Shown: positions 13,220 through 51,896, counted from the first letter of the stretch. The stretch is DNA of 64,000 bases from Escherichia coli (GCF_045037415.1 NZ_CP173438.1), one strand, 5' to 3'. The notes: a model not told the origin generated them from the sequence alone. Program-made: numbers and translations.

Positions 13220-13239
13220 AAAGCGCCCGCAGGCGCTTT
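13220..13239. repeat. attL core (20-bp direct repeat aaagcgcccgcaggcgcttt)
   Basis: Exact copy of the sequence at 51877..51896; contains the gcgcccgcaggcgc terminator palindrome. Confidence 0.8.
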
Positions 13240-13322
13240 AACGTTTCTTGCCCCTCCTGATGATTTACTTATTTTTCAACGAATAAGCCAAAACAGGGGG
13301 AACAAATTAACACAAATTATAA

Positions 13323-14315
13323 CTAATCGATGGACAGTTTATGGACACTTTCAGCCAGCGGATTAAAGTTGATCGCGTCCAGTAAAAAGTCCGGCGAAAA
13401 ATGAGCGTACGTCATTGTTTGCTGAATCGTTGCGTGCCCCAGGATTCGTTGCAACGTAACAATATTTCCGCCATTCATCATAAAGTGTGTGGCAAATGTA
13501 TGACGCATGACATGCGTAGCCTGCCCCTTCGGCAAATCCGGTTTCACCTCCTGAAGAATCTCCCGGAACTTCAGATAATCAACCTGATACAATAACCCCG
13601 TTCGACGGGTTTTAATCAGAGGCACGACCGAATCCGCCACAGGAACCGAACGGGATTTTCCGTTTTTGGTGTTAAAGAACGTCACCCGGTTGCCAACGAT
13701 ATGCTCTCCACGTAGTTCCGATGCTTCACTCCATCGGGCACCAGTAGAAAGACACAGAATGGCAACACGACGCACATCACCCTCCAGTCGCTCAAGAAGC
13801 CGTTCAATCTCATCATCAGAAAGAAAGGCCATCTCTGTGTTCTGAACTTTCAGTTTTCGTATACCGCGTACAGGGTTCGCGTTGTGAAAGACCTCAGCTT
13901 CAATCAGCACCGTGAACATGGTAGACAGTACGCATAAGTCACGATTAATACTGGACGGCATTAATCCGGCCTGTAATTTCTCTGACCGATATTCAAGCAT
14001 AAATTTTCGCGTCATCTGACTGGCGCGAGGATCTCCCATTTCACGAACAACCTTCCCTAGCCTAACCCTGTAGCTATCCCCGTAAGCCTGATTACGCCCA
14101 TCAAGCATCCACCACGCATCAAGCAGCTCTGATAATCGCCGCTGATCAGCTGGCTTAGCCTGCCATGGCTTGTCATGAAAGTTCTGTAACACATACTTCT
14201 CAAACTCCTGAGCCTTTGATTTCAGGGCAAAGATTTTTCGAATCCGCTTTCCTTCCGCCCCCTGCGGTCTGACATCGACCTGATAACGTCCGTCTTTGAG
14301 TTGCTTAATCGACAT
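13323..14315 (-). CDS. int: P2-type tyrosine integrase
   Basis: ORF 13323..14330 trimmed to MSIKQLKDGRYQVDVRP...; closely parallels the recalled P2 Int (MAIKKLDDGRYEVDIRP...), with ILCLSTGARW, HVMRHTFATHF and LGHATIQQTMTYAHF catalytic motifs. Confidence 0.9.
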   Translation of the reverse strand: MSIKQLKDGRYQVDVRPQGAEGKRIRKIFALKSKAQEFEKYVLQNFHDKPWQAKPADQRRLSELLDAWWMLDGRNQAYGDSYRVRLGKVVREMGDPRASQMTRKFMLEYRSEKLQAGLMPSSINRDLCVLSTMFTVLIEAEVFHNANPVRGIRKLKVQNTEMAFLSDDEIERLLERLEGDVRRVAILCLSTGARWSEASELRGEHIVGNRVTFFNTKNGKSRSVPVADSVVPLIKTRRTGLLYQVDYLKFREILQEVKPDLPKGQATHVMRHTFATHFMMNGGNIVTLQRILGHATIQQTMTYAHFSPDFLLDAINFNPLAESVHKLSID

Positions 14316-14384
14316 GATTAGCCCCTCCAACGGATAAATTAACTAAACACTCCTTGCGATATGTAATTCGCTCAATGTGTAGAG

Positions 14385-14726
14385 TCAGCCAACATTGCGG
14401 CCTGATCGGGGTGATTTTTGGGTAATACCGATTGAAACCTGATCGCCCTCCGACTGAATAGATCCATCAAGAGAGAGAGCCGGAGCAATCTGCCCGGCGA
14501 CAGGTAGCGTCTTATCTTTTATTAGCCACAGCATGTATTTTTCAAAGCGATCGACTTGCAGAACCGCCTCAACGATTTTTGCTCTAGCGTTCTTTTGCCC
14601 CGATTCGTAATTCCTTATGGTTGCCAAAGACAACCCAGTAATATCCGCAAACTGCTTTTGTGTTAACCCTTCCGCCTTACGTATCTGACGTAACTTTTTT
14701 GCGTAGTCTATTGACAAGATAACCAT
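14385..14726 (-). CDS. P2 C-like immunity repressor (HTH)
   Basis: ORF 14385..14780 trimmed to MVILSIDYAKKLRQIRKAEGLTQKQFADITGLSLATIRNYESGQ...; C-terminal GQIAPALS motif resembles recalled P2 C; divergent from the early operon. Confidence 0.75.
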   Translation of the reverse strand: MVILSIDYAKKLRQIRKAEGLTQKQFADITGLSLATIRNYESGQKNARAKIVEAVLQVDRFEKYMLWLIKDKTLPVAGQIAPALSLDGSIQSEGDQVSIGITQKSPRSGRNVG

Positions 14727-14830
14727 TTGAGTATTAACCTCTCGCACAAAGATAACCTTTTGGTTATCTTTACAAGCCAAAACAAACCATCACAAGGCGC
14801 GACAAGCGCACCAACGCAAGAGGATAACAA

Positions 14831-15352
14831 ATGCGGGACTTCATTGCCGATAAAGAGTTATCTGACCACCAACCACTTCAGGAAAGTGACGCACTCAGCG
14901 GATCCATTGATGCCGCCAACGACGACGAGCACGAAGAAAACAAGAAAAAGCGTTCCTACAAAAAAGGAGCGACTTTGCGGCTGGATGGTCCGATCGCCGG
15001 GCTTTGCTCTCTGGAAAAAGGCGCGGCATATATTGGGCTAACAAAATCTGCACTGCGCGTAGCCATTCATCGCGGTCAAATGCCGGGACACAAGACGCGC
15101 ACAAACCCGGAAGATGAAAACTCAGACGGAGTATGGTGGTTTAACGCCAAAGAGTGGGACAAGTTGGCTGATGAGCTACCAGAGCACGAGCCCCCAGAAT
15201 GGCACAACTGGAAAAGTTACTGGACGTATGACCGCCAGAAAAGGAAGTTCTCTCCAGCTAATAAAGAAGACTGCCAGACCATTAACGGTAAGCGAGTTTA
15301 TACAGGCAGAAGCTCAAAACTGGACCAACTCAGAAACAACAGAGGCAACTAA
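14831..15352 (+). CDS. Early HTH protein, possible Cox/excisionase-like regulator; start uncertain
   Basis: Contains helix-turn-helix-like segment AYIGLTKSALRVAIHRGQMPG; first gene divergent from the repressor. Confidence 0.4.
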   Translation: MRDFIADKELSDHQPLQESDALSGSIDAANDDEHEENKKKRSYKKGATLRLDGPIAGLCSLEKGAAYIGLTKSALRVAIHRGQMPGHKTRTNPEDENSDGVWWFNAKEWDKLADELPEHEPPEWHNWKSYWTYDRQKRKFSPANKEDCQTINGKRVYTGRSSKLDQLRNNRGN

Positions 15353-15356
15353 TCGT

Positions 15357-15779
15357 ATGAAAACAAACACGTCAGATTTCACAATAACTATTTCAAAAAA
15401 TGACCAAGCATTAATTGATAACCTGAAATACCTTGCGGAAAAACATAATAACGGACGAATTGCAATTAATTTACGACACATCACAGGAGTAACAATTGTA
15501 ACCAGTTACTGGCATCTATATCTAATCGCTAAATCAGTACTTGAAAACAAAGATTCTGTTGTCAATGGAAGAGATATAGATACTCTTCCTGCACAAATCA
15601 AACCGATAGCCTATCAATTGCGTAATCGTTTTAAAAATGAAGGTGGGATTATATTTGACTTTCCCGCAGCTGTAGCCGTGAGCTTCTCTCGGGGGGATAT
15701 ACTTCACTCATTTCGTTTTGCTCTATCAGGTGACGAGACATTATGGCAGCTAGAAGATGCCGGGAGCAGCCCGGCATAA
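15357..15779 (+). CDS. Hypothetical protein, AT-rich cargo gene
   Basis: ATG at 15357 (MKTNTSDFTITISKNDQALIDNLKYLAEKH...), about 140 aa; visibly lower GC than neighbours; no motif recognised. Confidence 0.45.
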   Translation: MKTNTSDFTITISKNDQALIDNLKYLAEKHNNGRIAINLRHITGVTIVTSYWHLYLIAKSVLENKDSVVNGRDIDTLPAQIKPIAYQLRNRFKNEGGIIFDFPAAVAVSFSRGDILHSFRFALSGDETLWQLEDAGSSPA

Positions 15780-15785
15780 ATCAAA

Positions 15786-15977
15786 TTAAAAATCAACCAG
15801 TTGTGTGACAGGTGGGTATTTACGCTGAATTTTGTCAGTTACTAACGCCAGTAATATATGAATCTCTGTGTTTAATGCGTCTTTATCACCCGTCGTTTTT
15901 ACCCTGGGAGGGTTAATGTTATCCAGAGCAGCACTAAGTTCACTCAACAAATTAACAACTTTTTTATCTTCTGACAT
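15786..15977 (-). CDS. Hypothetical small protein (63 aa), convergent with the preceding gene
   Basis: ATG at 15977 preceded by RBS aagagg; MSEDKKVVNLLSELSAALDNINPPRVKTTGDKDAL... Confidence 0.4.
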   Translation of the reverse strand: MSEDKKVVNLLSELSAALDNINPPRVKTTGDKDALNTEIHILLALVTDKIQRKYPPVTQLVDF

Positions 15978-16114
15978 GAAAACCTCTTAACAATTTAATT
16001 AAACATAAGCCAGGACCTGAACCGGCCAGTCCAAGTCCTAGACACACAAAAAAAATACCACAAATCAATACAAGGTGACACGAGTACACCTTACCGAAGG
16101 TACAGAGTTTTAAT

Positions 16115-18408: not shown

Positions 18409-18730
18409 GAAACCAGAGCATGCACACACAAAAAAACCGCTTGCCATGCCGCAATCAGTCAGGTTACATTTCCGCTGCACCTCATAAAACGGGTGCCGGG
18501 TTTCGCAGCCTGCTGACTACACAAGCGCACAACCGCGCCAGCGGTTTTTTTGTGCGTACTGTATTGCCACGTTTTTTTCGCGTCAGAATTATGGCGGGGC
18601 GTACGGGGCCGACTTCGGTCGGGCCGGGTTCTTGTGTAGCCGGTACTGCGAACCTCGTACGTCTCGCCACCCACAGTTTCGCAGCTCTGGATGGTGAGTT
18701 TTCACAACTTACTACACAAGGGGCCACACC

Positions 18731-18961
18731 ATGGCAAACCGCAAACAGCACCGCGCTATCGCGGAGCGTCGTCACATCCAGACTGAAATCAACCGCAGAC
18801 TTTCCCGCGCATCACGCGTCGCGCAAATCATGCACATCAATATGCTGCATGAGCGCAGCCACGCACTATCAAACATTTATTCCGCCTCTGTTTTCAGCTA
18901 TCTGGCGGATGATCTGCACGAGCTTCAACAGCTCATCCAGCAGCAAAACAAACTCCATTAA
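18731..18961 (+). CDS. Hypothetical phage early protein
   Basis: 76-aa ORF after a 300-bp structured noncoding stretch. Confidence 0.35.
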   Translation: MANRKQHRAIAERRHIQTEINRRLSRASRVAQIMHINMLHERSHALSNIYSASVFSYLADDLHELQQLIQQQNKLH

Positions 18962-19033: not shown

Positions 19034-19399
19034 ATGATTCTCGCCAACGACTTTCTTGAATACCTGCTCAATACAGAACGTGATCTTGCCGCTCGCGTGC
19101 GTGATCGTTATGACATGTACCTGAAATCCCTGCCTGTACCGCAGCTCGCTGACGGAAAGATTGTTATTGATGGTCGCTACATGATTGACAGCCACGAGGG
19201 AAATTACAGGCTTTACCGCATTGAAGGTGGCACCCCGTCCGTTATTGGCATTTACCAGCGCCCATCCTCTGCAATCGTCGATGTGATTGCCGACAGCATC
19301 CGCATCACACATCGCCATGCCGACACAGAAGACACCGTGCTGGAAATTCAGCGGCTGGCTACAGTCTGCCGCGACACCCTGAATGGCATGACGAAGTAA
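19034..19399 (+). CDS. Hypothetical phage early protein, immediately upstream of gene A
   Basis: 121-aa ORF; position is analogous to P2 B or the orf80-83 group. Confidence 0.4.
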   Translation: MILANDFLEYLLNTERDLAARVRDRYDMYLKSLPVPQLADGKIVIDGRYMIDSHEGNYRLYRIEGGTPSVIGIYQRPSSAIVDVIADSIRITHRHADTEDTVLEIQRLATVCRDTLNGMTK

Positions 19400-19405: not shown

Positions 19406-22228
19406 ATGACGGCAGAGTACCTCAGGGACTGGCAACAACCGCGCCACGCAGTGGGGCGTGAAGGAACGGGGATCCCCGCTCCTGAATCCGCGCTTTCCTC
19501 CTGGCTGGATGCCTACCGGGCAGAGAACGAGCGCCGCCAGGAAATGGCTGATGCGGCGTTCTCAGCCACGCCGCTGGGCAACCTGATTAATAAAAGCCTG
19601 GACGCACAGGAAAAACAGGACAAAACCATCACACTGGCAGGAGACGCCAGAAAACAGGCACGTGGCGCGGTGGATGAAGCCATGGCCTCGCTGCGCCTGC
19701 TGCCGTCCTATCTGCGCGATCCGCTTATTCGCCACCTCTCCTTCCTGCGCAAAAAACAGGAAGCCGATCGCCGGAAAGGCAAAAAGAGCTGGCAGGCGGA
19801 ACGCTATGCACGCGGAACCCTGCGCAAAATATTCGAACGTCTGGATAGCACTGACGGACGCTGGCTGACACCGGGTTATCGCTCCCTTGCCGGACGCGAA
19901 CGCCTGGACGATTTGCTTTACCTGCCGCAGCTCAACAAACACCAGATACAGACGCTGGCCACCATGACGGCGGCGATGTTCAGCAGCACCTTCGAAAAAC
20001 TCTGCGATGGCTTTGGCGCGACCGATGGCGAGCTGACCATGGATGTAACCCTGAAGGCGTATCAGATGCTGGCCCGCATGGCGTTACACCTGCACGCCAT
20101 GCCTCCACATTATGACGCACTGACAACAGACAAAGACCGGAGGAACGAACCGGACACGGAGCTGCTGCCGGGCGCAATCCTTCGCCTGACCTGTGCGGAA
20201 TGGTGGAAACGCAAACTGTGGCTGTTACGTTGCGAGTGGAGAGAAGAACAACTCCGCGCCGCCTGTCTGGTTTCCAGAAAAACATCACCCTATCTGAGCC
20301 AGGACGCGTTAAGCGAGTTTCGCGCACAGCGCGAGAAAACACGCGATTTCCTGAAAAGTTTCATGCTGGAAAATGAAGACGGGTTCACGATTGATCTCGA
20401 GACAGTGTATTACGCGGGAGTAAGTAACCCGGTTCACCGTAAGGCAGAAATGATGGCCACCATGAAGGGACTGGAACTTCTGGCCGAAGCCCGTGGCGAC
20501 AAAGCGGTGTTTCTGACTGTCACCTGCCCGTCAAAATACCACGCCACAACGGAGAACGGTCATCCGAATCCCAAATGGAACGGGGCCACAATGCGCGACT
20601 CCAGCGATTACCTGGTTAACACGTTTTTTGCGGCGGTCCGCAAAAAACTGAACCGCGACGGCCTGCGCTGGTATGGCATCCGCACGGTGGAGCCTCATCA
20701 TGACGGCACCGTGCACTGGCATATGATGGTCTTTGCACATCCGGAAGAAATCGACACCATTGTGTCCCATACCCGCGATATTGCCATTCAGGAAGACCGC
20801 CACGAGCTGGGCAATGATATTACTCCGCGCTTTAAGGTGGAGTATGTCGACGGCTCAAAAGGCACGCCAACCAGCTACATCGCCACCTACATCGGAAAGA
20901 ACCTGGACAGCCGCGCCGTGGATGGCATCGACCCGAAAACGGGCAAGCCACGCGTGGACCACGAAACCGGAAAATCAATGGCCGAGAGCGTGGAGCGCGC
21001 CATCGGCTGGGCGCGCCTTCACCGGGTCCGTCAGTTCCAGTTCTTTGGCATCCCCTCCCGTCAGGTGTGGCGTGAACTGCGCCGCCTTGCCAGCCAGATG
21101 GCACGCAATCCGGAAGGCCCGCAACGGCTGAAAGATGATGCAATGGATGCGGTACTCGCTGCCGCCGATGCCGGGTGTTTTGCCACCTACATTGAAAAAC
21201 AGGGTGGCGTGCTTGTTCCACGCAAGGACTACCTGATTCGCACCGCCTACGACCTCGCAGATGAGCTGAACGATTACGGCGAACAGAGCGTACAGATTTA
21301 CGGGATCTGGTCACCACTCATCGGGGAATCCTCCCGTGTGTGCACGCATCCGGATAACTGGAAGCTGGTAAGACGTAAACCGGAAGCGGAAGACAGCGCC
21401 CGCGAAAATGGTTTTGACCTTCAGGGCGGCCCTGCCGCCCCTTGGACTCGTGGCAATAACTGTCCCCGTGTACAGGAAACGGACAACAACGGGACAGAAC
21501 AGCCGGAAGAACGGCCAGCACCGTGGCCGCAGCTCCCTGACGGCGTTGAAGTGAACGAATGGATGCGCTCACTGAAACGACACGAACGCCGGGCGCTGAT
21601 GCGTTCGCTTCGTGACAAACAGGCAAAAAACAGCAGCGATGAAATGCAGAGCTGGACACAGAGCCGCAAACAGCAGCGGCCTTTGCCTGATAACCACGAA
21701 TTACTCGCTAAAGAATGGCGGGAGTCTGCTGAATCTCTCGGCCTGCATATCGGTGAACAACAGATGCAGCACCTGTTACGGGGCGGCAGTCTGTACGTTG
21801 ACGGCAGCATCATTGCACCGCAGGGATTTGAAATTGTACGCAAACCGGATACCCGCCCGGACAGCCGAATCACGCAGCTCTGGCAGCGCCTGAGCCGTAA
21901 TCATGGCGTAAGCAGCACGGAGATCCGCCATAACCCGGTCGCCAGCTATCTGGCACAGCTGGGGGCATCAGACCCTGAAGCCGCCGCACGCCTGGCATCC
22001 ACACTTCAGCAGGGCCAGAACACCATGAAAACACCCGTTACCGTGCTTTCTGACATGCTGCGCGCCATCCGCGACGCAGAGCACGCACAGAGAATCAGTG
22101 AAACCACTGAACGCGCCAGCCGCAAAGCAGACCTGCTGCGGGGTGGCCTGACCAGTGGAAACAAAAAACAGACAGAAACGGGACTTACGAATCCCGTAAA
22201 TGAGCAAAAAACGCGCAGCGATATATGA
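19406..22228 (+). CDS. P2 gpA-type rolling-circle replication initiation endonuclease
   Basis: 940 aa; HxH metal motif in TVEPHHDGTVHWHMMVFAHPEE, typical of gpA/gene II Rep proteins; longer than P2 A as I recall it (about 760 aa). Confidence 0.8.
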   Translation: MTAEYLRDWQQPRHAVGREGTGIPAPESALSSWLDAYRAENERRQEMADAAFSATPLGNLINKSLDAQEKQDKTITLAGDARKQARGAVDEAMASLRLLPSYLRDPLIRHLSFLRKKQEADRRKGKKSWQAERYARGTLRKIFERLDSTDGRWLTPGYRSLAGRERLDDLLYLPQLNKHQIQTLATMTAAMFSSTFEKLCDGFGATDGELTMDVTLKAYQMLARMALHLHAMPPHYDALTTDKDRRNEPDTELLPGAILRLTCAEWWKRKLWLLRCEWREEQLRAACLVSRKTSPYLSQDALSEFRAQREKTRDFLKSFMLENEDGFTIDLETVYYAGVSNPVHRKAEMMATMKGLELLAEARGDKAVFLTVTCPSKYHATTENGHPNPKWNGATMRDSSDYLVNTFFAAVRKKLNRDGLRWYGIRTVEPHHDGTVHWHMMVFAHPEEIDTIVSHTRDIAIQEDRHELGNDITPRFKVEYVDGSKGTPTSYIATYIGKNLDSRAVDGIDPKTGKPRVDHETGKSMAESVERAIGWARLHRVRQFQFFGIPSRQVWRELRRLASQMARNPEGPQRLKDDAMDAVLAAADAGCFATYIEKQGGVLVPRKDYLIRTAYDLADELNDYGEQSVQIYGIWSPLIGESSRVCTHPDNWKLVRRKPEAEDSARENGFDLQGGPAAPWTRGNNCPRVQETDNNGTEQPEERPAPWPQLPDGVEVNEWMRSLKRHERRALMRSLRDKQAKNSSDEMQSWTQSRKQQRPLPDNHELLAKEWRESAESLGLHIGEQQMQHLLRGGSLYVDGSIIAPQGFEIVRKPDTRPDSRITQLWQRLSRNHGVSSTEIRHNPVASYLAQLGASDPEAAARLASTLQQGQNTMKTPVTVLSDMLRAIRDAEHAQRISETTERASRKADLLRGGLTSGNKKQTETGLTNPVNEQKTRSDI

Positions 22229-22304: not shown

Positions 22305-23264
22305 ATGAAAATTTGTATCGACGACGGCTCCACCAACATCAAGCTGGCATGGACTGAGAATGGCGAACGCCGCAACGCCATCAGCCCGAACAGCTTCAAG
22401 TCGGAATGGTCTGCGCCGTTCGGTGGCATGCAGCCCGCGAACTACATGCTTGATGGCGTGCGCTATGGTTTTGATCCGGTTAGCGATCGCTTTGTCCAGA
22501 CGACCGACACGCAATACCAGTACAGCGATGTGAATGTAATCGCCATTCATCACGCGCTGGTCAAATCAGGCATCACGCCACAGGAGGTGGATGTGGTTGT
22601 CACCCTGCCACTGAGCGAGTATTTCGACACAAACGCACAGCCGGACATGGCCAACATCAACCGCAAAAAAGCGAACGTTATGCGCCCGGTGGAATACCAG
22701 AACGGCGAAGCATTCACTATCCGTAACGTGCGGGTTATGCCTGAATCCATTCCGGCTGGCTTTAAAGCACTGGCTGACATGAGTCCGTTTGAATCCCTGC
22801 TGATTGTGGATTTAGGCGGAACCACGCTGGATGTGGCAAAGGTTCAAGGGCAACTGGCAGGTATCAGCCAGGTGTTTTGCGATCCACACGTAGGCGTTTC
22901 CCTGATGGCCGATGCCGTACTGTCGGTGATGGCCACTAACGGTATGCGCACCAGTCACCACATCGCCAATACCATTATCGAACATCGCCATGATGAAGCC
23001 TGGCTGCGCCAGCACATCCACAATGACGCGCATTACGCCAGCCTGATGGCGGTTATTCGTGAAAAGGAAGAAACACTGAAACAACGCGTGATCCGCTCGC
23101 TGGCGGTTTTTTCGGGTTACGGGCGGGTGATGGTTGTCGGTGGAGGGGCGGAGATTGTGGCACCCGCTATCCGCGAAGTCTGCGGAGTTAATGCGACTTT
23201 CATCGCGGACGGGGTGCCACAGTTTGCTCTGGTTAATGGGCTGTACGCAATGGACAAGGAGTAA
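22305..23264 (+). CDS. ParM/StbA-like actin-family partition ATPase
   Basis: MKICIDDGSTNIKLAW...ISPNSFKSEW...YSDVNVIAIHHAL...VVGGGAEI parallels recalled plasmid R1 ParM (MLVFIDDGSTNIKLQW...ISPNSFKREW...YSDVNVVAVHHAL...). Confidence 0.8.
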   Translation: MKICIDDGSTNIKLAWTENGERRNAISPNSFKSEWSAPFGGMQPANYMLDGVRYGFDPVSDRFVQTTDTQYQYSDVNVIAIHHALVKSGITPQEVDVVVTLPLSEYFDTNAQPDMANINRKKANVMRPVEYQNGEAFTIRNVRVMPESIPAGFKALADMSPFESLLIVDLGGTTLDVAKVQGQLAGISQVFCDPHVGVSLMADAVLSVMATNGMRTSHHIANTIIEHRHDEAWLRQHIHNDAHYASLMAVIREKEETLKQRVIRSLAVFSGYGRVMVVGGGAEIVAPAIREVCGVNATFIADGVPQFALVNGLYAMDKE

Positions 23265-23268
23265 ACCA

Positions 23269-24509: not shown

Positions 24510-24548
24510 ACTTCCCCCTGTGTTACTTGTAAATTAAAGGGTAAAACA

Positions 24549-41393: not shown

Positions 41394-41395
41394 CG

Positions 41396-41929: not shown

Positions 41930-41957
41930 GACAAGGCCCGATAACGGGCCTTAATTT

Positions 41958-42485: not shown

Positions 42486-42486
42486 A

Positions 42487-43419
42487 TTAAACGCTCGCTA
42501 CATTATACCAGGTGCCATTTATATACTTTTGAACGGGTCTGTAATAAACACCCGCTATATTATCGGCAGAGTTAGACCCTGTATCCTGAACATTAATACC
42601 AGACAATACATGACCTGAAGGGCACTGGAAATTCCATGTTCGCCAGTTGTTCACTCCATAATATTGCTGTGAACCAAGTCGAACATCTTTCACATAACGG
42701 GAATCAAAGTTACCGTAATCCGAGGGATTAACACGCCCCGTAATATTTATGGTCTTATTACTTTGAATGCTTCCGGGAACAAAGCGCATAACATGGACGT
42801 AATTAGCATAAACATCCAGATTACCATCGCCATTTTGTTTAAAGCCCGTGTCATTATCACCCAATACAATCGAATTACCGCCAAGAGCACTGGATGTTCC
42901 GATACCCAGTGCACCATTCAGTTGACCACCAGATAACGGCAGTGCACCAACATCTCCTGCTGAAGGTTTTCTGGTGGTGGTGTAAAATTCGGACCAGTCG
43001 GCTTCAAAACCATAACCATCACGGGCTGAACGATAAAAAATACCGCCATTTTTATAATTAATCCGAAACTGAGCTGCAGGACAACTTCCGTCTCCCATAT
43101 AAAAATGAATAATTAACGTTGATGCACCACCAATATTTGCGTTATAGGCTCCGCTACTCCAGTTCCATCCAACTGCTTTATCATTCGCAACGGTGCTTCC
43201 TGTTTTCCCTAAGGCAAACGCACCAACATGACTTGCTTTTAATGTGATATCGGAGGAACCATCAAAAGCCACATTGCTTATTTTCCTGGCAGTTTTTAAT
43301 TTTGCAGCTGTAGAAGCATTGCCGGATAGTTCACCAGAAAGGCCACCGCTGAATGTTTGTCGATTAGTCCAGGTATTCGCTGTACTGAGTAACGGTATTT
43401 TCTCCCCGCTTGTGCCGAG
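42487..43419 (-). other. Promoterless alternative tail-fibre C-terminal cassette
   Basis: ORF 42487..43272 is the in-frame part; the reverse complement of 43300..43420 nearly repeats H codons at about 40700..40800; expressed only after inversion. Confidence 0.65.
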
Positions 43420-43445
43420 TTCTCGTAAACCGAGGTTTTAAATAA
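43420..43445. promoter_or_regulatory. gix/cix-like invertase crossover site (right)
   Basis: ttctcgtaaaccgaggttttaaataa, compared with recalled Mu gixR TTCCTGTAAACCGAGGTTTTGGATAA. Confidence 0.7.
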
Positions 43446-43499
43446 TGGCCGTTTCTGGCCTGCATGGCATGATTTGCGCTTTTGGACGGGAGATTCAGT

Positions 43500-44099
43500 G
43501 TGCTGATTGGCTATGTAAGGGTATCAACAAATGACCAGAATACAGACCTGCAACGAAACGCTCTTGTTTGTGCAGGATGTGAACAAATATTTGAAGATAA
43601 ATTAAGCGGGACAAAGACAGACCGACCGGGATTAAAACGCGCTTTAAAGCGCCTTCAAAAAGGTGACACGCTGGTTGTCTGGAAACTGGATCGCCTCGGG
43701 CGAAGCATGAAACATCTGATTTCTCTCGTCGGGGAACTACGGGAGCGAGGGATTAATTTTCGCAGTCTGACCGACAGCATAGACACATCTTCTCCAATGG
43801 GGCGTTTTTTCTTCCACGTGATGGGTGCCCTGGCTGAAATGGAACGTGAATTAATTGTTGAACGTACACTGGCCGGGCTGGCGGCAGCGCGCGCAAGGGG
43901 GCGCACAGGCGGACGTCGACCGAAGCTGACAAAAGAACAGCATGAGCAAATAGCAAGGCTAATCAAAAACGGGCACGACAGAAAACAACTGGCAATAATT
44001 TACGGCATTGGCACATCGACGATTTATCGTTATCACCCTGTAGGCGATATACAGACTGAAGAAACAACCGGGCAGACTCAGGAAAATGAAAACCGCTAA
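43500..44099 (+). CDS. Serine DNA invertase (Gin/Pin/Cin/Hin family)
   Basis: GTG start gives MLIGYVRVSTNDQNTDLQRNALVCAGCEQIFEDKLSG..., close to recalled Gin/Pin; catalytic Ser in VRVSTNDQ. Confidence 0.85.
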   Translation: MLIGYVRVSTNDQNTDLQRNALVCAGCEQIFEDKLSGTKTDRPGLKRALKRLQKGDTLVVWKLDRLGRSMKHLISLVGELRERGINFRSLTDSIDTSSPMGRFFFHVMGALAEMERELIVERTLAGLAAARARGRTGGRRPKLTKEQHEQIARLIKNGHDRKQLAIIYGIGTSTIYRYHPVGDIQTEETTGQTQENENR

Positions 44100-44127: not shown

Positions 44128-44622
44128 TCAGAACAGCCCTTTAACTGAACTGGCCGCGCTGTTAAGAGATGATGTCACCTTATCTTTGAAGCCGGACAGC
44201 ATATCACTGAACGATGAGGATTGCAGGCGCTCCCGCAAATCCTCATCACAGCGTTCAAGAGTCAGTGAAAATTCTATCTTTTTCGCCTTACCGTAGCGAT
44301 CAAACTCGGAGCGGGTCGTATTCGTTTCAGTCAGGACATACATGCCGTAAATCTGCCCGACGCCATCAATCAAAGGCCAGGGTCGTCCTGTATACGCCTG
44401 CGTGGTCAGCAGCGACAGCGACACTTCGCCACCTGTAATTTCAGGATAAAGCACACCAGAAAGAACGATGCGATCATCACCTGCACCGATATACTGCCAG
44501 CTTGCTGAACGGTTAACGCGTTCATTTTTCACATGCCGCCAGCTTTTGTTTTGCTGTAACTGCTGATGCGGCAGCGTGCGCAGCTCAAAAACAAACATGC
44601 CGTAGATCATCATCATGGCCAT
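44128..44622 (-). CDS. Tail protein U (P2 gpU-like)
   Basis: 164 aa; ...QQLQQNKSWRHVKNERVNRSASWQYIGAGDD... parallels recalled P2 gpU. Confidence 0.8.
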   Translation of the reverse strand: MAMMMIYGMFVFELRTLPHQQLQQNKSWRHVKNERVNRSASWQYIGAGDDRIVLSGVLYPEITGGEVSLSLLTTQAYTGRPWPLIDGVGQIYGMYVLTETNTTRSEFDRYGKAKKIEFSLTLERCDEDLRERLQSSSFSDMLSGFKDKVTSSLNSAASSVKGLF

Positions 44623-44628
44623 GACTCC

Positions 44629-47472
44629 TCAATCTTTATCGTAAAAACTGCCACGCCCGGCACGGGCGCGCCGTTCCATTTCTGCCCTGACCATTTCACC
44701 GACCAGTTTCGCCAGTTCGCGGGGATTCTGCGTAACAACGTTATGCAGATGAACATGAATTTCACCACCAAATCCGGAGGCAACAGGCTCCCGGTTACGG
44801 GAAGTTACAGGAACTGATGCCACTGGAGATCGTATAGCCTCCGCCACCGGGCGGGAGCTGGCCGCAACAACAGGGACCAGCGCCGGAGGCAGCGGAGCCG
44901 GGACCACGGGTGTGATATTAATTGCGGGGGCAGGCTTACTGACCTGCGCAATCTTCCGCTCCTGCCACTCCCCACGAACAGCAAGTGCTCGGGGCAGGTT
45001 TTTAAAGACAATATCGCCGGGGCCAATGCGTTTTTTCGTCTCCTCAACCAGCTTACCTGTGTTATCAGCAATTTTGCTGAGTCTGCGCAGCGTACCGGTA
45101 TTGCTGTCTGTGAGCGGTTTATTGTCTTTGGGGTTATCACCTCCGGTGCCATTGCCATTTTCCACAGGCTTCGGCGGATTGATTTTCGCCAGGTCCCCCT
45201 GAAGCAAGGCAACCTTGTCCTGAAGAATGGCCGCACGCTGTGCGTCTTCGATTTTCTTGCGCGCCCTTTCCGCTTCATCCGGAAGCACACCAAGCTTTTC
45301 AAGTATCCACGCCAGCGTATCCAGCAACATTTTTGCAGGTGTCAGAACAAGTTGTAACGCACCGCCAAGAACGTTACCGAATATCTCGCCAGCACTGGTA
45401 CATTTATCCAGAGTTTCCTTGCTGGACTCCATCGGAGACAGCAGCGATTTAAACCAGTTAAACACCTGGCTGATCCCACTCCCGATTGCGTCAAAAACAG
45501 GACCAAACCGTTCAAAGGTTTCGCGCAACGGGGTCAGCCTTTCCATAATCCCGCTGAACACCCCGGCAAAAAATGCCCTGATGGGATCCCAGTATTTCCA
45601 GATGAGAACGGCAGCTCCGGCAAGCGCAGCCACGATAAGGCCGACCGGACTGAACAACGCCCCGATAGCGCCCCCCAGTAACGAAACGGAACCCGTCACC
45701 ATTCCCCATAGTGCTGGCAGGAGTCTGACAGCATTCATTGAACCGGTCAGGAGGGAAAAGCCAAGACGCAGTTTTGCCAGCGGGCCAGCAAGCACACCAA
45801 TAGCCAGCGACAACGAGCCAACCGTTGCAGTCATTGCCAGCAACGCACCGCCTGCTATCAGTAGCTGGCGCGTCAGTACCGGATGGGCCTGCGCCAGCGA
45901 GGTGATTTTTTCAAGCACCCGCGTGAGCCACTGCGTGACAGAACGCAGCGGACCGTCAACCAGATCACTGATGCGAATACGAAGACCTTCCCATGCGCTG
46001 TCGAGATTTTTCAGGTCCCCATCAAGATTATCGGCCATTACTTTTGCAACGCGATCGGCCTCTCCCCTTGCCCCCTGCAATTCTCTGGTCAGTTTTTGCA
46101 GCTCTCCTGAACCAGCCGCCGCAACAAGCGTCTGCAAACCAACGAACGCCTCTTCTCCGGCGATGTCCTTGAAGAAGGAAACCTGGTCCACCTGTCCGTA
46201 TTTTTGTGTCGCCTTATAGAGATCAAGCAGCACATCCTCCATCGGGCGCATTTTGCCTCTGGCGTCAGCAACTGACACCCCCAGCTCTTTCAGCGCATCA
46301 GCCGCAGCTTTTGGCGGTGATGCAAGGCGGGACAGACTTGCGCGCATGGCCGTACCAGCATCGCTTCCACGAAGACCATTATTGGCAAGCATCCCGGCCA
46401 TGGCTGCCGCTTCTTCAAGACTGATACCAAGTTTTGCGGCAACCGGACCGGTATACTTCATGGTTTCGCCCAGCGCGCGTAAATCAGTATTGGTCCGGGT
46501 GAATGCCGCTGTCAGCGTATCGCCAACCCGGTCCATTTGATCGGCTGTCAGGTTGAACTGTGTGAGGATATTGGAGCCTATATCAGCCGTCTCGCCGAGT
46601 TCGACGCCACCTGCCAGCGCCATATTAAGAACACCGGGCAATGCGGCCTGAATGGCCTGCGGAGTAAAACCAGCCATTGCCAGAAAGCTCTGCCCACTGG
46701 CGGCATCACTCGCAGTAAACTGTGTTTCAGAGCCAAGTTTTAACGCCTGCTCACGCAGCGCCTTAAACTGCGGGCTGTTTTTGTCGATTCGCGTCAGCGC
46801 CTGAACGCGGGACATCTCTTTGCCGAACCCGATCGCGGGCTGCAAAAAACGCCCGGCAGCATAGCCGCCCGCCGCTGCCGCACCAATTGCCAGCGCACCA
46901 CCTGTTTTCAGTTTTCCCGCGGTTTCCTGCGCGCGCGAATACCGCTCACGAGCCTGCGTTACACGCGCAAGCGCCTGCCGTTCGCGTTCAAGCTGGTTGT
47001 TGTATTGTTCGGTGCGTCTGATGGCCTGCTGGATGGTGTTATCGCTGCCTGTCAGGGAAATGCCGTGGCGTTTCAGTTCTCCGCCAAGCTCCCGCATTTT
47101 CTGAATTTCCCGTGTGCGCGATTCATTCAGGCGTTCAAGCCGGGTGCTTAACTGCTGCATCAGCTTTTGTTGTTTTTCGCTGAGCACTGTACCCGTGCGT
47201 TGTAACTGATTAAGGGCGTTAAGCTGGCGTCGTGCTTTCACGATACCCGCATCCGCTTTACTGACAGCGTCGCGGGCGCGCTCAAATGAACGCGCCTGAC
47301 GCTCGAGATTTTTGATCGCCCCCTGCGTTCGCTGAATGGAGTCACCAAACTGCCCCATCAGGCGGCGGGCGTTTTCGGCAGGCCGGGTCAGCCTGTCAAC
47401 GGCGCTGAAAGCGACCCGGATGTCAAGAGTCTTCATTATCTGCATTCCCGCTGCGAAGTGCCGCCCGCTCAC
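44629..47472 (-). CDS. Tail tape measure protein (P2 gpT-like)
   Basis: 947 aa, Ala/Gly-rich with coiled-coil N-terminal region and hydrophobic centre; downstream of E/E'. Confidence 0.85.
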   Translation of the reverse strand: MSGRHFAAGMQIMKTLDIRVAFSAVDRLTRPAENARRLMGQFGDSIQRTQGAIKNLERQARSFERARDAVSKADAGIVKARRQLNALNQLQRTGTVLSEKQQKLMQQLSTRLERLNESRTREIQKMRELGGELKRHGISLTGSDNTIQQAIRRTEQYNNQLERERQALARVTQARERYSRAQETAGKLKTGGALAIGAAAAGGYAAGRFLQPAIGFGKEMSRVQALTRIDKNSPQFKALREQALKLGSETQFTASDAASGQSFLAMAGFTPQAIQAALPGVLNMALAGGVELGETADIGSNILTQFNLTADQMDRVGDTLTAAFTRTNTDLRALGETMKYTGPVAAKLGISLEEAAAMAGMLANNGLRGSDAGTAMRASLSRLASPPKAAADALKELGVSVADARGKMRPMEDVLLDLYKATQKYGQVDQVSFFKDIAGEEAFVGLQTLVAAAGSGELQKLTRELQGARGEADRVAKVMADNLDGDLKNLDSAWEGLRIRISDLVDGPLRSVTQWLTRVLEKITSLAQAHPVLTRQLLIAGGALLAMTATVGSLSLAIGVLAGPLAKLRLGFSLLTGSMNAVRLLPALWGMVTGSVSLLGGAIGALFSPVGLIVAALAGAAVLIWKYWDPIRAFFAGVFSGIMERLTPLRETFERFGPVFDAIGSGISQVFNWFKSLLSPMESSKETLDKCTSAGEIFGNVLGGALQLVLTPAKMLLDTLAWILEKLGVLPDEAERARKKIEDAQRAAILQDKVALLQGDLAKINPPKPVENGNGTGGDNPKDNKPLTDSNTGTLRRLSKIADNTGKLVEETKKRIGPGDIVFKNLPRALAVRGEWQERKIAQVSKPAPAINITPVVPAPLPPALVPVVAASSRPVAEAIRSPVASVPVTSRNREPVASGFGGEIHVHLHNVVTQNPRELAKLVGEMVRAEMERRARAGRGSFYDKD

Positions 47473-47586
47473 GCCAGCTAACCACTTCGCCGGGCGTCAT
47501 CATGAAGATTTCGGCGGGCGACCAGTTGAAAATGGCGGCAATATCCGCCACCAGATCTTCGATGTGCTCAAAGCACACCAGGGTGA

Positions 47587-47961
47587 TTACGCTGCCGTCT
47601 CCTGCACGCTCTTCGCGCCAGAGTCTGGCTCGCTCATAAAATTTACAGCCACAGCGCACAACTGAATAAAATCGCGTGACGACATTTTTTTAATCATCAC
47701 TTCATCCAGTCGTGGCGAGGTCACGCGAGGCAACAGCGTGAACATGGTATCCGCTTTCAGATTCAGCACATCAGACAGCGACAGACCACGCAGGGATCCC
47801 GCCTGCTCAATAGCCCCGGTGATCTCCACATATGTGATTTTTTCGGCACCACGCTCAATTGGCCGGGAAAGTTTTACACCACGTTCGACAGCCATATCCT
47901 CACCTGACGTCACATCATCCGCTACGGTGTTATTCCGGGTTTCAGTATCGATATCTTTCAT
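47587..47961 (-). CDS. Tail assembly chaperone E (P2 gpE-like) with overlapping -1 frame E' extension (47423..47659)
   Basis: 124-aa ORF whose 3' end overlaps a -1 frame ORF running into T; A7 run at about 47685..47691 near the start of the shared window. Confidence 0.7.
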   Translation of the reverse strand: MKDIDTETRNNTVADDVTSGEDMAVERGVKLSRPIERGAEKITYVEITGAIEQAGSLRGLSLSDVLNLKADTMFTLLPRVTSPRLDEVMIKKMSSRDFIQLCAVAVNFMSEPDSGAKSVQETAA

Positions 47962-48016
47962 CAGTTGTCTCCTTTTCAGTCAGAGGCGACGCACTGCGCC
48001 GCCTGCATATTACTTA

Positions 48017-48529
48017 TCAGCCAAGCCCAAGCGCGGAACGAATGCGGTCAGGCACAATGTCCTTGCCGTCCTTCCGGTAGATGTGGTTCAACAGGTCGAT
48101 TTCCCACAGCGGGCGATCGTTAACGCTCAGCTTGTAGTAGGTGTTTTTGACAGCGTAAGTGTGTGATGTGGCTTCGCCCTGTTTGGCCTCCCCCATATCA
48201 ATTTCCGTCACACGCCCGCGCATCTCGATTTCATACAGATCGCTTTCTGCATCGGTGTAATATTCACCCGCAAAACGCAGCAGCGTGCCGTCAATCGTGC
48301 CGCCATACTTAAGGAACAGTGCACGAACAGCTCCCCCCATGACAAAGCTCGCATCAAGCGCGGAGTCGTCCAGACCGAGATCAATACTTACTGCTCCCAT
48401 CATGCCACCACCACGATAGCTGTCGGTTTTGCGCGTCAGTTTGGGCGGCGTGACGGATGTCACTTTACCCACTTCGTTTTCACCATCCACAAACAACGTA
48501 AAAAAGCGAAGATGTTTTGGTACAGCCAT
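48017..48529 (-). CDS. Tail tube protein (P2 gpFII-like)
   Basis: 170 aa (P2 FII is 172); position between sheath and E. Confidence 0.85.
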   Translation of the reverse strand: MAVPKHLRFFTLFVDGENEVGKVTSVTPPKLTRKTDSYRGGGMMGAVSIDLGLDDSALDASFVMGGAVRALFLKYGGTIDGTLLRFAGEYYTDAESDLYEIEMRGRVTEIDMGEAKQGEATSHTYAVKNTYYKLSVNDRPLWEIDLLNHIYRKDGKDIVPDRIRSALGLG

Positions 48530-49713
48530 CAGGCACCTCCCAGCACCGCAAATGCGGGACCAAAGAATTCATCAGTAAACGTCTGGTAAAGCTCCATGTC
48601 TTCCAGCGGGGGAACGGGCGTATATTTGTAGCGAATACGCACACGCCCCTGACGTAAATCCGTGGTGCCGTTATCCACCACGTCATACCAGCACTCCGCG
48701 CCAATCAGTTTCCCGGCAGTAACCAGCGAATCCAATTTTGCCCTGATGGCACTGATAACATCCTTCACGTTCGCAGGCGTCAGTGGACTGTCGATGGTTT
48801 CAAACTGCGCTTCCGCAATTGAATCAGCCAGCACCTGTGCGGTTCGGGTATACACCTCAAAGATGTAGGCGTTCGTTTCCGGTGTGCGGTTGCCCCAGAA
48901 GCGGAACCCGTTACGACGAATAATGGTCGTGATTTCTTTGTTGTTGAGGCTGTTGGCATCACTGTCTTCGGCCTGTAACGACCAGAACACATGCCTCGAC
49001 ATCCCCAGCACATTTTTAACCGGAACGTTGGACAGCGATTTGTGCCAGCCCTGCTCATGGTCAATGTACGCACGAAGGCCGCACGCATAAGCAGGCGCGG
49101 GGAACGTTTCGTTTTTGCCACTTTTCGGGTTGTAGGCGATGAAGTCAGGCCATAAGAGCATCACCTCACGTTCGTTGAATTTCTGGCGGTAGGTAATCGC
49201 CTCAGCCATCGTGTTACAACCATGACATGTGGCATACACAAACGCGCGCAGTTTACCCGCAATCACGCACAGGGATTTTGTCACCGCCTCCGTGTCCAGC
49301 TCCGGCGCGGCCAGAATACGCGGACGGTATCCGATGCTTTCATCCTGCTCTGCAACAAGCAGCGCATACATCCCCGTATAGCTGCCGTCAGATTCAGAAC
49401 CACCGATAACCAGTTGATCCTGCGTCCTACCGCCTTCTTCTTTGTGTTCAGCCACGCGAACGACGATCACTTTTGTGCTCACCTGGTCTGCGATAGCCTT
49501 AAGCGCACGATAAAGCGTCCCCGTAGTCCCGCATTTTCCCAGCACGTCATTGACGCGGGTCAGCAGTGTGGGCTTGTTCAGCGGGAACAGCTCCGCATCC
49601 GCATCATCCGCCGTTGCCACGATACCGATAACGCTGGAATCAACATCATTAATCGCTGTTACCAGGTCGGTACTTTCCGTGACACGGGCACCATGAAAAC
49701 GAGTTTCACTCAT
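48529..49713 (-). CDS. Tail sheath protein (P2 gpFI-like)
   Basis: 394 aa (P2 FI is 396); ATGA-coupled to FII. Confidence 0.85.
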   Translation of the reverse strand: MSETRFHGARVTESTDLVTAINDVDSSVIGIVATADDADAELFPLNKPTLLTRVNDVLGKCGTTGTLYRALKAIADQVSTKVIVVRVAEHKEEGGRTQDQLVIGGSESDGSYTGMYALLVAEQDESIGYRPRILAAPELDTEAVTKSLCVIAGKLRAFVYATCHGCNTMAEAITYRQKFNEREVMLLWPDFIAYNPKSGKNETFPAPAYACGLRAYIDHEQGWHKSLSNVPVKNVLGMSRHVFWSLQAEDSDANSLNNKEITTIIRRNGFRFWGNRTPETNAYIFEVYTRTAQVLADSIAEAQFETIDSPLTPANVKDVISAIRAKLDSLVTAGKLIGAECWYDVVDNGTTDLRQGRVRIRYKYTPVPPLEDMELYQTFTDEFFGPAFAVLGGA

Positions 49714-49870: not shown

Positions 49871-50980
49871 ATGACCGACACCACCATGCAATTGCTCAGT
49901 CAGGGCACAGACCCCGTGAAAATGCCGGATTTTGATATTCTCGCGGAGGGTAAAACGCTGTCAGGCGTGGCAGAGCGCCTGATGAGCCTGTCACTGACCG
50001 ACAACCGGGGATTTGAGGCGGACCAGCTCACCATCACGCTGGATGATGCGGATGGTCAGTTGCAGCTACCGCCACGGGGCGCGCGCCTGACGGTTCTCAT
50101 TGGCTGGAAAGGAGAACCGCTGACAGAAAAAGGCACTTACATTGTTGATGAAATCGCTCACGAAGGACCGCCGGACAGGCTGACTGTTTCAGCCAGAAGC
50201 GCAGATTTTCGGGATGAATTTAACGTTAAACGTGAGGTGTCCTGGCATGATGTGACCGTTGAGCGTGTGGTATCCGCCATCGCTCATCGGTATGGTCTGA
50301 AACCGCAAATCAGCGAAATGCTGATGGATATCGAAATCGACCACGCCGACCAGACCGAAGAAAGCGACATGTCCTTCCTTACGCGCATGGCGGAAATGCT
50401 GGGCGCAATCACCACGGTAAAAAGCGGTAATCTGTTATTCATCATGCCCGGCGGTGGCGTGAACGCACAGGGCCAGCCGTTGCCATCGTTTGCCATCACA
50501 CGCAGCAGCGGCGATCGCCATCAGTTCCGCATTGCTGACCGCGAAGCGTATACGGGGGTACGCGCTTACTGGCTTGATCTTAATTACGGGAAAAAGAAAA
50601 AAGTCAGCGTGAAACGCCGTAAACCGCCAAAACCCAAAAAGGAGAAAAGCAGCAGCCGCGAAGGTGATTATATGGAAGGCGCGGAAGGCAATGTGTTTGT
50701 GTTACGCAAGACTTATCAGAACGAGCAGGCAGCAAGACGCGCAGCGGCGGCAAAGTGGCAGCAACTACAACGCGGAGCCGCATCATTCTCCATCACGCTG
50801 GCGCGTGGACGTGCAGAACTCTACCCCGAAATGCATGGCACGGTAACAGGATTTAAAAGCGAGATTGATAATCAGGACTGGATCATTGCAAAAGCCGAGC
50901 ACACCATTGATAACAGCGGTTTTACCACGCAGCTTGAGCTTGAGGCAAAAATCCCGGAATGGATAGCGGAAACAGAGTGA
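49871..50980 (+). CDS. Tail protein D (P2 gpD-like, late control gene D)
   Basis: ORF 49739..50980 trimmed to ATG 49871 with RBS gggaggg; about 370 aa; assigned by size and position next to ogr. Confidence 0.7.
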   Translation: MTDTTMQLLSQGTDPVKMPDFDILAEGKTLSGVAERLMSLSLTDNRGFEADQLTITLDDADGQLQLPPRGARLTVLIGWKGEPLTEKGTYIVDEIAHEGPPDRLTVSARSADFRDEFNVKREVSWHDVTVERVVSAIAHRYGLKPQISEMLMDIEIDHADQTEESDMSFLTRMAEMLGAITTVKSGNLLFIMPGGGVNAQGQPLPSFAITRSSGDRHQFRIADREAYTGVRAYWLDLNYGKKKKVSVKRRKPPKPKKEKSSSREGDYMEGAEGNVFVLRKTYQNEQAARRAAAAKWQQLQRGAASFSITLARGRAELYPEMHGTVTGFKSEIDNQDWIIAKAEHTIDNSGFTTQLELEAKIPEWIAETE

Positions 50981-51020
50981 GCAACTTAGAATAGGCAGCA
51001 CCACGTTAAGGGAGGTCGCT

Positions 51021-51281
51021 ATGTTCCGTTGTCCGCTTTGTGGCGCATCTGCCCGTATCCGCACCAGTCGTCCGGAAAATGATTCAAACACCGTGCGGCA
51101 AAAGTATTACCAGTGTAACAATCTGGAATGCGGCGTATGCTTCTCAACACTGGAAGCTTTCCATAAATTCACATCAAAACACGCCTCCGGCGTTCACTCT
51201 TCAGAAGGTATCCCGTGGCATGATCTGCCAGCTTCACACAGGGGAAACAATCAGATGAGTTTGCCTTTATCTCAGAATTAA
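51021..51281 (+). CDS. ogr: Ogr/Delta-type zinc-finger late transcription activator
   Basis: MFRCPLCGASARIRTSR...YYQCNNLECGVCF has the CxxC...CxxxxC pattern and parallels recalled P2 Ogr. Confidence 0.8.
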   Translation: MFRCPLCGASARIRTSRPENDSNTVRQKYYQCNNLECGVCFSTLEAFHKFTSKHASGVHSSEGIPWHDLPASHRGNNQMSLPLSQN

Positions 51282-51472
51282 CAGGCAGAATTGCCGGAGT
51301 AACAAAAAAGCGATAGATTACGTGCGGGTGCCTTTCGGCTGATGGTCGGAGGGAATACCCGAAGGCCAGATGTGGAAAGGCCCCGAGTCAACTTTAACGT
51401 TAACCCGAGGCCCTAACCATCTACCCTCAGCAAGTGATAGGTTAGCGCCTCCCCGAAAAAGGAGCAAGCGCT

Positions 51473-51613
51473 ATGTCGCAAAAATCGCTTACGGCCATCA
51501 CATTCTGCGTGACGGCAATCCTCATCATCTGGATGCTGCACGGTTCGCTGTGTGAAATACGGATGAGTTTCTGGGGAGCGGAGTTTGCGGCGTTCTTACA
51601 GTGTAAGCAGTAA
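51473..51613 (+). CDS. Hok/Gef-family type I toxin (46 aa), with overlapping mok-like frame 51370..51555
   Basis: MSQKSLTAITFCVTAILIIWMLHGSLCEIRMSFWGAEFAAFLQCKQ: N-terminal TM then the SLCEIR signature and an E-AAF block as in Hok; RBS aggag. Confidence 0.6.
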   Translation: MSQKSLTAITFCVTAILIIWMLHGSLCEIRMSFWGAEFAAFLQCKQ

Positions 51614-51707
51614 GGAAACCGCGACGGGGAAGGCAACTTCCCCGTCAATCGGTTGCCAGGGTAAAGGTCGAAAAGGCACCCTATTTCCAGTTGACGTGAA
51701 CAACAAG

Positions 51708-51739
51708 CCCGCAGCGTAAAAACTGCGGGTTTTCTTTTT
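51708..51739 (+). terminator. Intrinsic terminator downstream of the hok-like gene
   Basis: cccgcag-cgtaaaaa-ctgcggg followed by ttttcttttt. Confidence 0.6.
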
Positions 51740-51772
51740 GGTTCCCTCACTCATGAGGACACCAAAAAACAA

Positions 51773-51803
51773 AGCCCACAGCATAGAAGCTGTGGGCTTT
51801 TTG
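51773..51803 (+). terminator. Second intrinsic terminator
   Basis: agcccacagc-atagaa-gctgtgggct followed by ttttt. Confidence 0.55.
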
Positions 51804-51876
51804 CATTCAAAGATGGACGTTATATGGACACTTAAAAATAAAATCCATTTATTTTCAAATGATTAAACCTCTACTT

Positions 51877-51896
51877 AAAGCGCCCGCAGGCGCTTT
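51877..51896. repeat. attR core (20-bp direct repeat), also the serS terminator
   Basis: Exact copy of 13220..13239; lies about 22 bp downstream of the serS stop. Confidence 0.8.

Follow-up and report, generated by a model that had tools for sequence, protein, structure and literature searches.

The window analysed here, a stretch of 64,000 nucleotides of one strand of Escherichia coli DNA (GCF_045037415.1, NZ_CP173438.1), carries a block of phage genes between the host genes serS and dmsA, and the question that this locus raises is how the block came to be inserted, and between which bases. A first-pass annotation had described it as a P2-like prophage lodged in the serS terminator and flanked by a 20-bp direct repeat. 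From the analysis that follows, we are highly confident that it is a 38.66-kb P88-like temperate phage that its own P2-type tyrosine integrase inserted into a near-palindromic bacterial attachment site (attB) of 20 bp, AAAGCGCCCGCAGGCGCTTT. The boundaries of the insertion, counted from the first base of the window, are as follows.

10579 to 13023, minus strand: dmsA, host gene, with its ATG at 13023
13220 to 13239: attachment core copy on the dmsA side (attL); on the minus strand a hairpin followed by TTTTTTT, forming a complete intrinsic terminator downstream of int; on the plus strand the 3′ hairpin of a match to STnc130, a putative small RNA (sRNA)
13240 to 51876: prophage-specific DNA, 38,637 bp (38,657 bp with one core, 13240 to 51896)
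51877 to 51896: attachment core copy on the serS side (attR); a hairpin 22 bp past the serS stop, continued on the minus strand by TTTAAGTAGAGG and not called terminator-like
51919 to 53211, minus strand: serS, host gene

The 20-mer occurs on the plus strand in exactly the two copies that the first-pass annotation had given, compared with 0 expected in shuffled sequence, and it was also recovered as repeat family D12 in the repeat analysis. Alignment of 40 bp on each side of both copies confines the identity between them to the 20 bp themselves. The core is a near-palindrome with an 8-bp stem and the loop CGCA, a property reflected in two further matches on the minus strand, each with 2 mismatches. 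The second copy had been taken for the serS terminator hairpin, about 22 bp past the stop codon, and 22 bp is indeed the distance counted (51897 to 51918). With a single repeat the host spacer comes to 196 + 20 + 22 = 238 bp, close to the length of some 240 bp that the first-pass annotation had given for the uninterrupted region.

The empty site was rebuilt in silico by joining 12640–13239 to 51897–52500, which gives 1,204 nt with the repaired attB junction AAAAAAGCGCCCGCAGGCGCTTTTTAGATTC, and this sequence was searched against complete E. coli genomes. It is 100% identical, ungapped over 1,204 nt, to strains SK1144 and FXCREC028, so that the alignment to prophage-free serS–dmsA regions proposed as a check in the first-pass annotation came out in its favour. 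In 5,076 of the 5,426 genomes, 80% or more of the rebuilt site aligns as a single piece, always between genes annotated as serS and dmsA. The dmsA–int junction of the window is present in 344 genomes, to be set against the 350 that lack the uninterrupted site; at most about 6 interrupted sites are thus left unexplained. In genomes without the attR junction, the right-junction query aligns from its base 778, which corresponds to window position 51877, the first base of the core. Since deletion of the insert together with one repeat yields the prophage-free sequence at 100% identity, we conclude that the crossover fell within the 20-bp repeat. The hok–serS junction is found in 289 genomes, compared with 344 for the dmsA–int junction, so that the right end must be different or rearranged in about 55 carriers.

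The inserted DNA is identified by its gene set and its relatives as a complete P88-like (Xuanwuvirus, Peduoviridae) prophage of the P2 family. The attribution to P2-like phages in the first-pass annotation is borne out by the late gene set and by matches to phage genomes, which together refine it to P88-like. Megablast matches to P88, PhiR44_2, Citrobacter phage Shae_phiSM and Xuanwuvirus P884B11 are collinear at 92–96% identity, and these phages cover 41–68% and 62–82% of the two halves of the query. The likeness to P88 and Xuanwuvirus extends, at this identity and collinearly, over 62–68% of the prophage and takes in replication, ParM, head, tail, invertase, ogr and hok functions. Unlike these, the int, C and cox module (window about 13240–16100, the first 2.9 kb) has no match in P88, from which it follows that integration specificity and immunity differ. 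The P2-type late set is complete and intact, comprising Q P O N M L X, the lysis genes, R S V W J I H G, FI FII E T U D and ogr. A single integrase, a single set of structural genes and the lack of any insertion sequence element argue that this is one element, neither tandem nor composite.

The sequences next to the two cores bear directly on how the phage would have integrated. As the first-pass annotation had noted, int adjoins the left repeat, at a distance of 83 bp, and ogr and hok adjoin the right one.

13323 to 14315, minus strand: int, P2-type tyrosine integrase, 330 aa
14385 to 14726, minus strand: C-type immunity repressor, helix-turn-helix
14831 to 15352, plus strand: Cox-family DNA-binding protein, 173 aa
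13329 to 13347, plus strand: candidate Int arm-type sites of the P′ arm, tandem direct repeats GATGGACA and TATGGACA at a spacing of 11 bp, overlapping the 3′ end of int
51812 to 51830, plus strand: candidate Int arm-type sites of the P arm, tandem direct repeats GATGGACG and TATGGACA at a spacing of 11 bp, kept in the variant of isolate EC571 (see below)
51853 to 51865, plus strand: IHF-like site TTTCAAATGATTA, a consensus match at 12/13 positions to WATCAANNNNTTR, between the P-arm repeats and the core
51021 to 51281, plus strand: ogr/Delta-like zinc-finger late activator
51326 to 51613, plus strand: hok-type locus, with hok at 51473–51613, an overlapping mok-like open reading frame (ORF) at 51370–51555 and a sok match at 51326–51486

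The integrase has a PHROG 1 match at 9e-70, and its identity to P2-type Int is 49% across 98% of the length; to any integrase of a genuine phage record it is at most 56% identical, and in NCBIfam it gives only sub-threshold matches to Xer and integron families. In the N-terminal sequence DGRYQVDVR, the residues Y, D and R are spaced in the way that has been proposed to mark P2-type arm recognition (PMC3448106). The phage attachment site (attP) was rebuilt from the left flank of attR, the core and the right flank of attL as a 798-nt query, its junction reading TTAAAGCGCCCGCAGGCGCTTTAACG. The four arm repeats that it contains share one orientation and match the P2-type arm consensus tgTGGaCa (PMC3448106), and the composite ATGGAC-N5-6-ATGGACAC occurs once in each att arm and nowhere else within 13000–52000. 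The C repressor and Cox-family genes are divergent and adjoin int, and the Cox-family protein would, by analogy and as we infer, act as an excision directionality factor and a regulator of the switch. In the mechanism that we propose on the model of P2, Int would bridge arm and core sites, IHF would bend the DNA and Cox would direct excision. Strand exchange took place within the 20 bp common to attP and attB, so that the hairpin is duplicated as attL and attR.

The nature of the target itself can be read from its surroundings, in which attB would be the stem-loop of a bidirectional intrinsic terminator lying between convergent serS and putative STnc130, just upstream of the dmsA promoter. The relevant features are given below.

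13114 to 13248, plus strand: match to Rfam RF02084, STnc130, a putative enterobacterial sRNA, overlapping the dmsA promoter and FNR site; its last 9 nt are phage DNA
13194 to 13207: dmsA P1 FNR site, read on the minus strand as TTGATACCGAACAA and on the plus strand as TTGTTCGGTATCAA; intact, on the host side of attL, 12 bases from the repeat
51771 to 51800, minus strand: 12-bp hairpin of phage origin with GTTTTTTGG after it; in the lysogen, no terminator-like site downstream of serS precedes it

The STnc130 match scores 137.4 bits, compared with a gathering score of 55, and spans model positions 1–135 of 135. It ends in the core hairpin, which points to a bidirectional terminator that serves serS on the minus strand and the putative sRNA on the plus strand. 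Beside dmsA in Salmonella, STnc130 is described as a ‘putative sRNA’ only (PMC3632133), and we treat it here as a label and not as an established gene. In the terminator scan, the attL copy read on the minus strand is followed by TTTTTTTGTC and is called terminator-like, whereas the attR copy beside serS is followed by TTTAAGTAGAGG and is not. Because the two att copies are identical only as far as the hairpin reaches, the T-tracts beside it have not been duplicated: the T7 tract of serS is now located at attL behind int, and the serS-side copy is without it. At attL, the host T7 terminator would end the phage C–int transcript and insulate dmsA. At the other end, serS would keep a hairpin that lacks a T-tract and would probably terminate at the phage-borne hairpin 77 bp further on. 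On the STnc130 side, the 3′ tail changes from UUUUUAGAUUC in the empty site to UUUAACGUUUCUU in the lysogen, the change of the tail on the plus strand being from TTTTTAGATTC to TTTAACGTTTCTT.

It is tempting to see consequences for the host in this splitting of the terminator. Here the serS transcript would be lengthened at its 3′ end by about 100 nt of phage sequence, antisense to the P arm of attP; STnc130, as a putative Hfq-type RNA, would exchange its U-rich tail for UUUAACGUUUCUU; C–int would capture the T7 tract; and host regulation would be rewired. We consider this outcome distinctly improbable. If it were true, in the form of altered serS 3′ ends, STnc130 stability or anaerobic dmsABC control, it would mean rewired host regulation in the pandemic ST131 and UTI89 lineages. 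As a separate observation, the P′ arm sequence GGGGCAAGAAA on the minus strand of attL (13205–13260) can form base pairs with the T7 tract of the host and its continuation, UUUUUUUGUCUCC, to extend the hairpin to about 20 bp, with a minimum free energy of −25.7 kcal/mol and z = −3.4; this pairing may be due to chance or may be a trace of a related terminator in attP.

The first-pass annotation also placed the insertion 13 bp from the dmsA FNR-like site and suggested that it could affect dmsABC or serS termination; the proximity stands, and the distance is corrected to 12 intervening bases. The geometry of the dmsA promoter is taken from the published centre of the FNR site at −41.5 (PMC3688515), which sets the P1 start near 13159, the core at about −61 to −80 and the beginning of the phage DNA at about −81. 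The dmsA core promoter and the FNR site are unchanged in the lysogen, and with the core promoter intact a large effect of the prophage on dmsABC would be unlikely.

Comparison with sequenced genomes places the prophage among elements that have been described. On the basis of junction searches, one 1.4-kb alignment and a matching gene map, it is identified as Phi1 of the E. coli O25b:H4-ST131 strain EC958, in which it lies at roughly 949.9–988.5 kb. The junction queries are 100% identical in many ST131/O25b:H4 genomes, those with the dmsA–int junction including EC958, JJ1886 and JJ1887. Three features of the window enter into the comparison.

40668 to 43449: invertible tail-fibre segment between two inverted repeats of 170 nt, with alternative alleles of the H C-terminus and of G
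43500 to 44099, plus strand: serine DNA invertase
49871 to 50980, plus strand: gpD, VgrG/Pvc8 family, an intact ORF of 369 codons

The 1.4-kb alignment runs across gpD and is 100% identical to EC958. In that genome RefSeq annotates only the last 266 codons of gpD (window 50180–50980) together with a partial pseudogene; as the DNA is identical and the ORF at 49871–50980 is open and has a good Shine–Dalgarno sequence, this truncation is an annotation artefact. EC958 Phi1 has been described as having a ‘Phi1 phage tail region’ with two 26-bp invertase crossover sites (Forde 2014, PMC4134206), and these map onto the inverted repeats of the window (40668–40837 and 43280–43449; 170 nt, 89% complementary). 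Gene order and the invertible tail-fibre segment are alike in the two, and no difference from the published element (Totsika 2011; Forde 2014, PMC4134206) is found in the parts compared. The descriptions of Phi1 consulted name neither serS, dmsA nor the 20-bp core (PMC4134206). The ST131 ‘tailocin’ prophage s2-ST131 was also considered as the same element and rejected, its regions being prophages 2 and 5 and not Phi1 (PMC9205054).

A described relative is PhiECO5 of UTI89, a P2-like prophage reported at 911187–948481; its regulatory region is given as P2-type, its immunity class as new (IX) and its integration site as its own (PMC3448106). In UTI89 it lies between serS and dmsA with cores at 911178–911197 and 948472–948491. 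Its published ends thus fall in mid-core, which means that the site has been in the literature since 2011. PhiECO5 shares the identical core and site, int, C, Cox, A, the ParMR backbone and the tail module; otherwise collinear, it lacks the gene for the 625-aa DUF6645 protein, and where the prophage of the window has the DUF4760 and membrane proteins it encodes XF1762 family, ClpX zinc-finger and SPFH proteins.

The same site is used by further relatives. The pig isolate EC571 has the same core occupied by a non-identical relative with a TIR-domain gene between D and ogr, and its P arm shows three single-nucleotide polymorphisms (SNPs) within 17 bp of the unchanged core. An IMG/VR isolate contig has the same core with SNPs on both sides of attL, and Escherichia albertii NBRC 107761 has the same attL junction in a host flank that has diverged from that of E. 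coli. The presence of non-identical relatives at one core argues for repeated site-specific targeting by this type of integrase and not for one ancient event. Separately, the 391-bp record CACSKA010000082.1, from an assembly labelled ‘Chryseobacterium sp. 18061’, matches the E. coli attL junction when compared by eye, and is almost certainly E. coli contamination of that assembly.

How far the evidence sustains integration by the phage’s own integrase into the terminator hairpin depends on what else could explain it. Since terminator hairpins rich in GC are frequent, and since 21 nt of core plus flank are matched exactly in a Vibrio genome as well, one might suppose that the repeat is a chance pair of similar hairpins and that the real boundaries lie elsewhere. 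This idea is refuted by the absence of expected chance matches, by the thousands of uninterrupted genomes that are recovered, with no gap or mismatch, on deletion of one copy and the intervening DNA, and by the identical boundaries in UTI89, EC571 and E. albertii; we give it virtually no chance. A closer competitor holds that the functional target is the 3′ end of an sRNA gene, STnc130, as for phages that integrate in tRNA, tmRNA or sRNA genes, and that the link to serS is incidental. The full-length Rfam match ending in the core hairpin would fit this, as would the use of tRNA genes or ssrA by 186-type integrases of the P2 family. The DNA concerned is nevertheless the same, so that the label would change and the mechanism would not; moreover, the native 3′ tail of the sRNA is not restored by the phage, and the Rfam model of this ‘putative’ RNA is nearly structureless apart from the terminator, the core hairpin being its only substantial structure. 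We regard this alternative as unlikely.

The remaining question is whether the prophage is still mobile, and several observations weigh against our account as a whole. The rebuilt attP of 798 nt has no contiguous match in the INPHARED phage records, and exact attP patterns of 34 and 26 nt gave 0 matches in IMG/VR and 0 in the contigs of JGI metagenomes. Most carriers of the dmsA–int junction among the matches listed are named ST131 or O25b:H4, so that the shared junctions are largely a reflection of vertical inheritance. The exchange point is not narrowed within the 20 bp, the core being identical in every attB, attL and attR examined; the arm sites and the IHF site are consensus matches only; and, as regards the proposed target, the promoter scan found no promoter-like site upstream of STnc130, which is only a putative sRNA and is absent from the RefSeq annotation. 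It might accordingly be argued that the phage arrived as described and is now a fixed, non-excising ST131 prophage, a lineage marker or domesticated carrier of cargo whose repeats are a scar. Hundreds of genomes with identical junctions and the lack of an attP junction in any collection searched would accord with this. So would the fact that the int–C–cox module matches only three ‘phage’ records (ON470623.1, ON470599.1 and PV468777.1), in which the match to the rebuilt attP begins precisely at the core, with host dmsA before it: these are partial prophage predictions with wrong boundaries, which take in 11.6 kb of host genes (ycaO, focA, pflB, pflA, ycaD, ycaC and dmsCBA) and stop inside the DUF6645 gene. 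Against fixation stand the intact state of all expected ORFs, including int, cox, A, terminase and gpD, and an invertase that is active in EC958, where about 50% of PacBio reads are inverted (Forde 2014, PMC4134206). Variants with different cargo and SNPs at the site in unrelated hosts and in E. albertii argue for mobility of the type. As phages of this kind are nearly absent from the collections searched, in which a control pattern of core plus P′ arm found a single IMG/VR contig, itself an attL, the attP negative is weak and uninformative. Overall, fixation seems to us doubtful though worth bearing in mind, and the integrated P88-like phage may still be able to excise.

The rest of the prophage was assigned with PHROGs, NCBIfam and the RefSeq annotation of the identical EC958 region, and its remaining features are as follows.

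18477 to 18674, plus strand: isrK (18477–18551) and C4 antisense RNA (18587–18674), Rfam matches in the early operon
19406 to 22228, plus strand: gpA-type replication endonuclease
22305 to 23583, plus strand: ParM (22305–23264) and ParR-like partition protein (23269–23583)
23667 to 25046, minus strand: variable cargo, flanked by parR and the portal gene and encoding a multi-pass membrane protein of 280 aa and a DUF4760 protein of 165 aa
26309 to 32615: head and packaging genes, with portal Q and terminase P on the minus strand and scaffold O, capsid N, small terminase M and head completion L on the plus strand
32615 to 34064, plus strand: tail protein X, holin, M15 endolysin, DUF2570 protein and LysC lysis genes
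34061 to 35938, plus strand: 625-aa DUF6645 protein, PHROG 143, of unknown function, between the lysis cassette and tail gene R
35962 to 41929, plus strand: tail completion and baseplate genes R S V W J I, tail fibre H and assembly protein G
44128 to 49713, minus strand: tail genes U, T (tape measure), E/E′, FII (tube) and FI (sheath)

The FI–FII–E–T–U operon runs opposite to V–W–J–I–H–G and D/ogr and is in this respect collinear with P88-like phages. Within the tail-fibre gene H, a 132-nt unit is duplicated in tandem at 88% identity (39935–40198, plus strand). The isrK and C4 matches score 65 and 83 bits, respectively, and lie in a 626-bp stretch of the early operon without a convincing ORF, upstream of ORFs of 76 aa (18731–18961) and 121 aa (19034–19399); the region looks like a P1/P7-style c4-type antisense control module within a P2-family phage. 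The ParM/ParR-like pair is present in a phage that integrates into the chromosome, as it is in P88. In a PADLOC scan, the cargo ORFs matched no known defence system beyond a weak match of the 280-aa membrane protein to Csx27 (1e-5), and the variable cargo is possibly a set of defence genes. At the right end, the hok ORF scores 34 bits for NCBIfam HokA, compared with a cutoff of 89, and sok 42.8 bits in Rfam, compared with a gathering score of 59, both sub-threshold; the protein at this position is named Hok/Gef family in the RefSeq annotation of EC958, and the homologous region ‘MokW-like host killing protein’ in phage records. A search of the prophage for the P2 cos sequence, with up to 3 mismatches allowed, gave no match.

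The type of prophage, its site and its mechanism are already known, having been published as EC958 Phi1 (PMC4134206) and UTI89 PhiECO5 (PMC3448106). The prophage is of interest mainly as a lineage marker and, as a textbook case of P2-type site-specific integration, holds little discovery value. What is mildly new is the split of the bidirectional terminator, the map of arm sites and the recurrence in E. albertii. The exact att boundaries are now given for a common ST131 prophage, three public ‘phage’ records are flagged as wrongly bounded, and the locus provides a clean case of a P2-type integrase aimed at a terminator hairpin.

This last point is best appreciated by comparison with other phages of the family. 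As in the Int/IHF/Cox system of P2, int adjoins attP, C and cox are divergent, and two direct arm repeats lie on each side of the core; as is usual for P2-type integrases, the target is intergenic and involves no tRNA gene. The core sequence and the chromosomal site differ from those of P2. The Cox protein of P2 is shorter than the 173-aa homologue of the prophage, and the FI–U tail operon is inverted in the prophage when set beside the P2 map. Among P2-family phages, those with 186-type integrases insert in tRNA genes or ssrA, 186 itself being found in tRNA-Ile and Fels-2 and SopEPhi in ssrA (PMC3448106). These phages and the prophage alike target a conserved hairpin at the 3′ end of an RNA, and integration leaves the core in two copies. 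Unlike 186, Fels-2 and SopEPhi, which restore the target gene, the prophage duplicates the hairpin only, with the T-tract of each of the two convergent transcripts parted from one copy.

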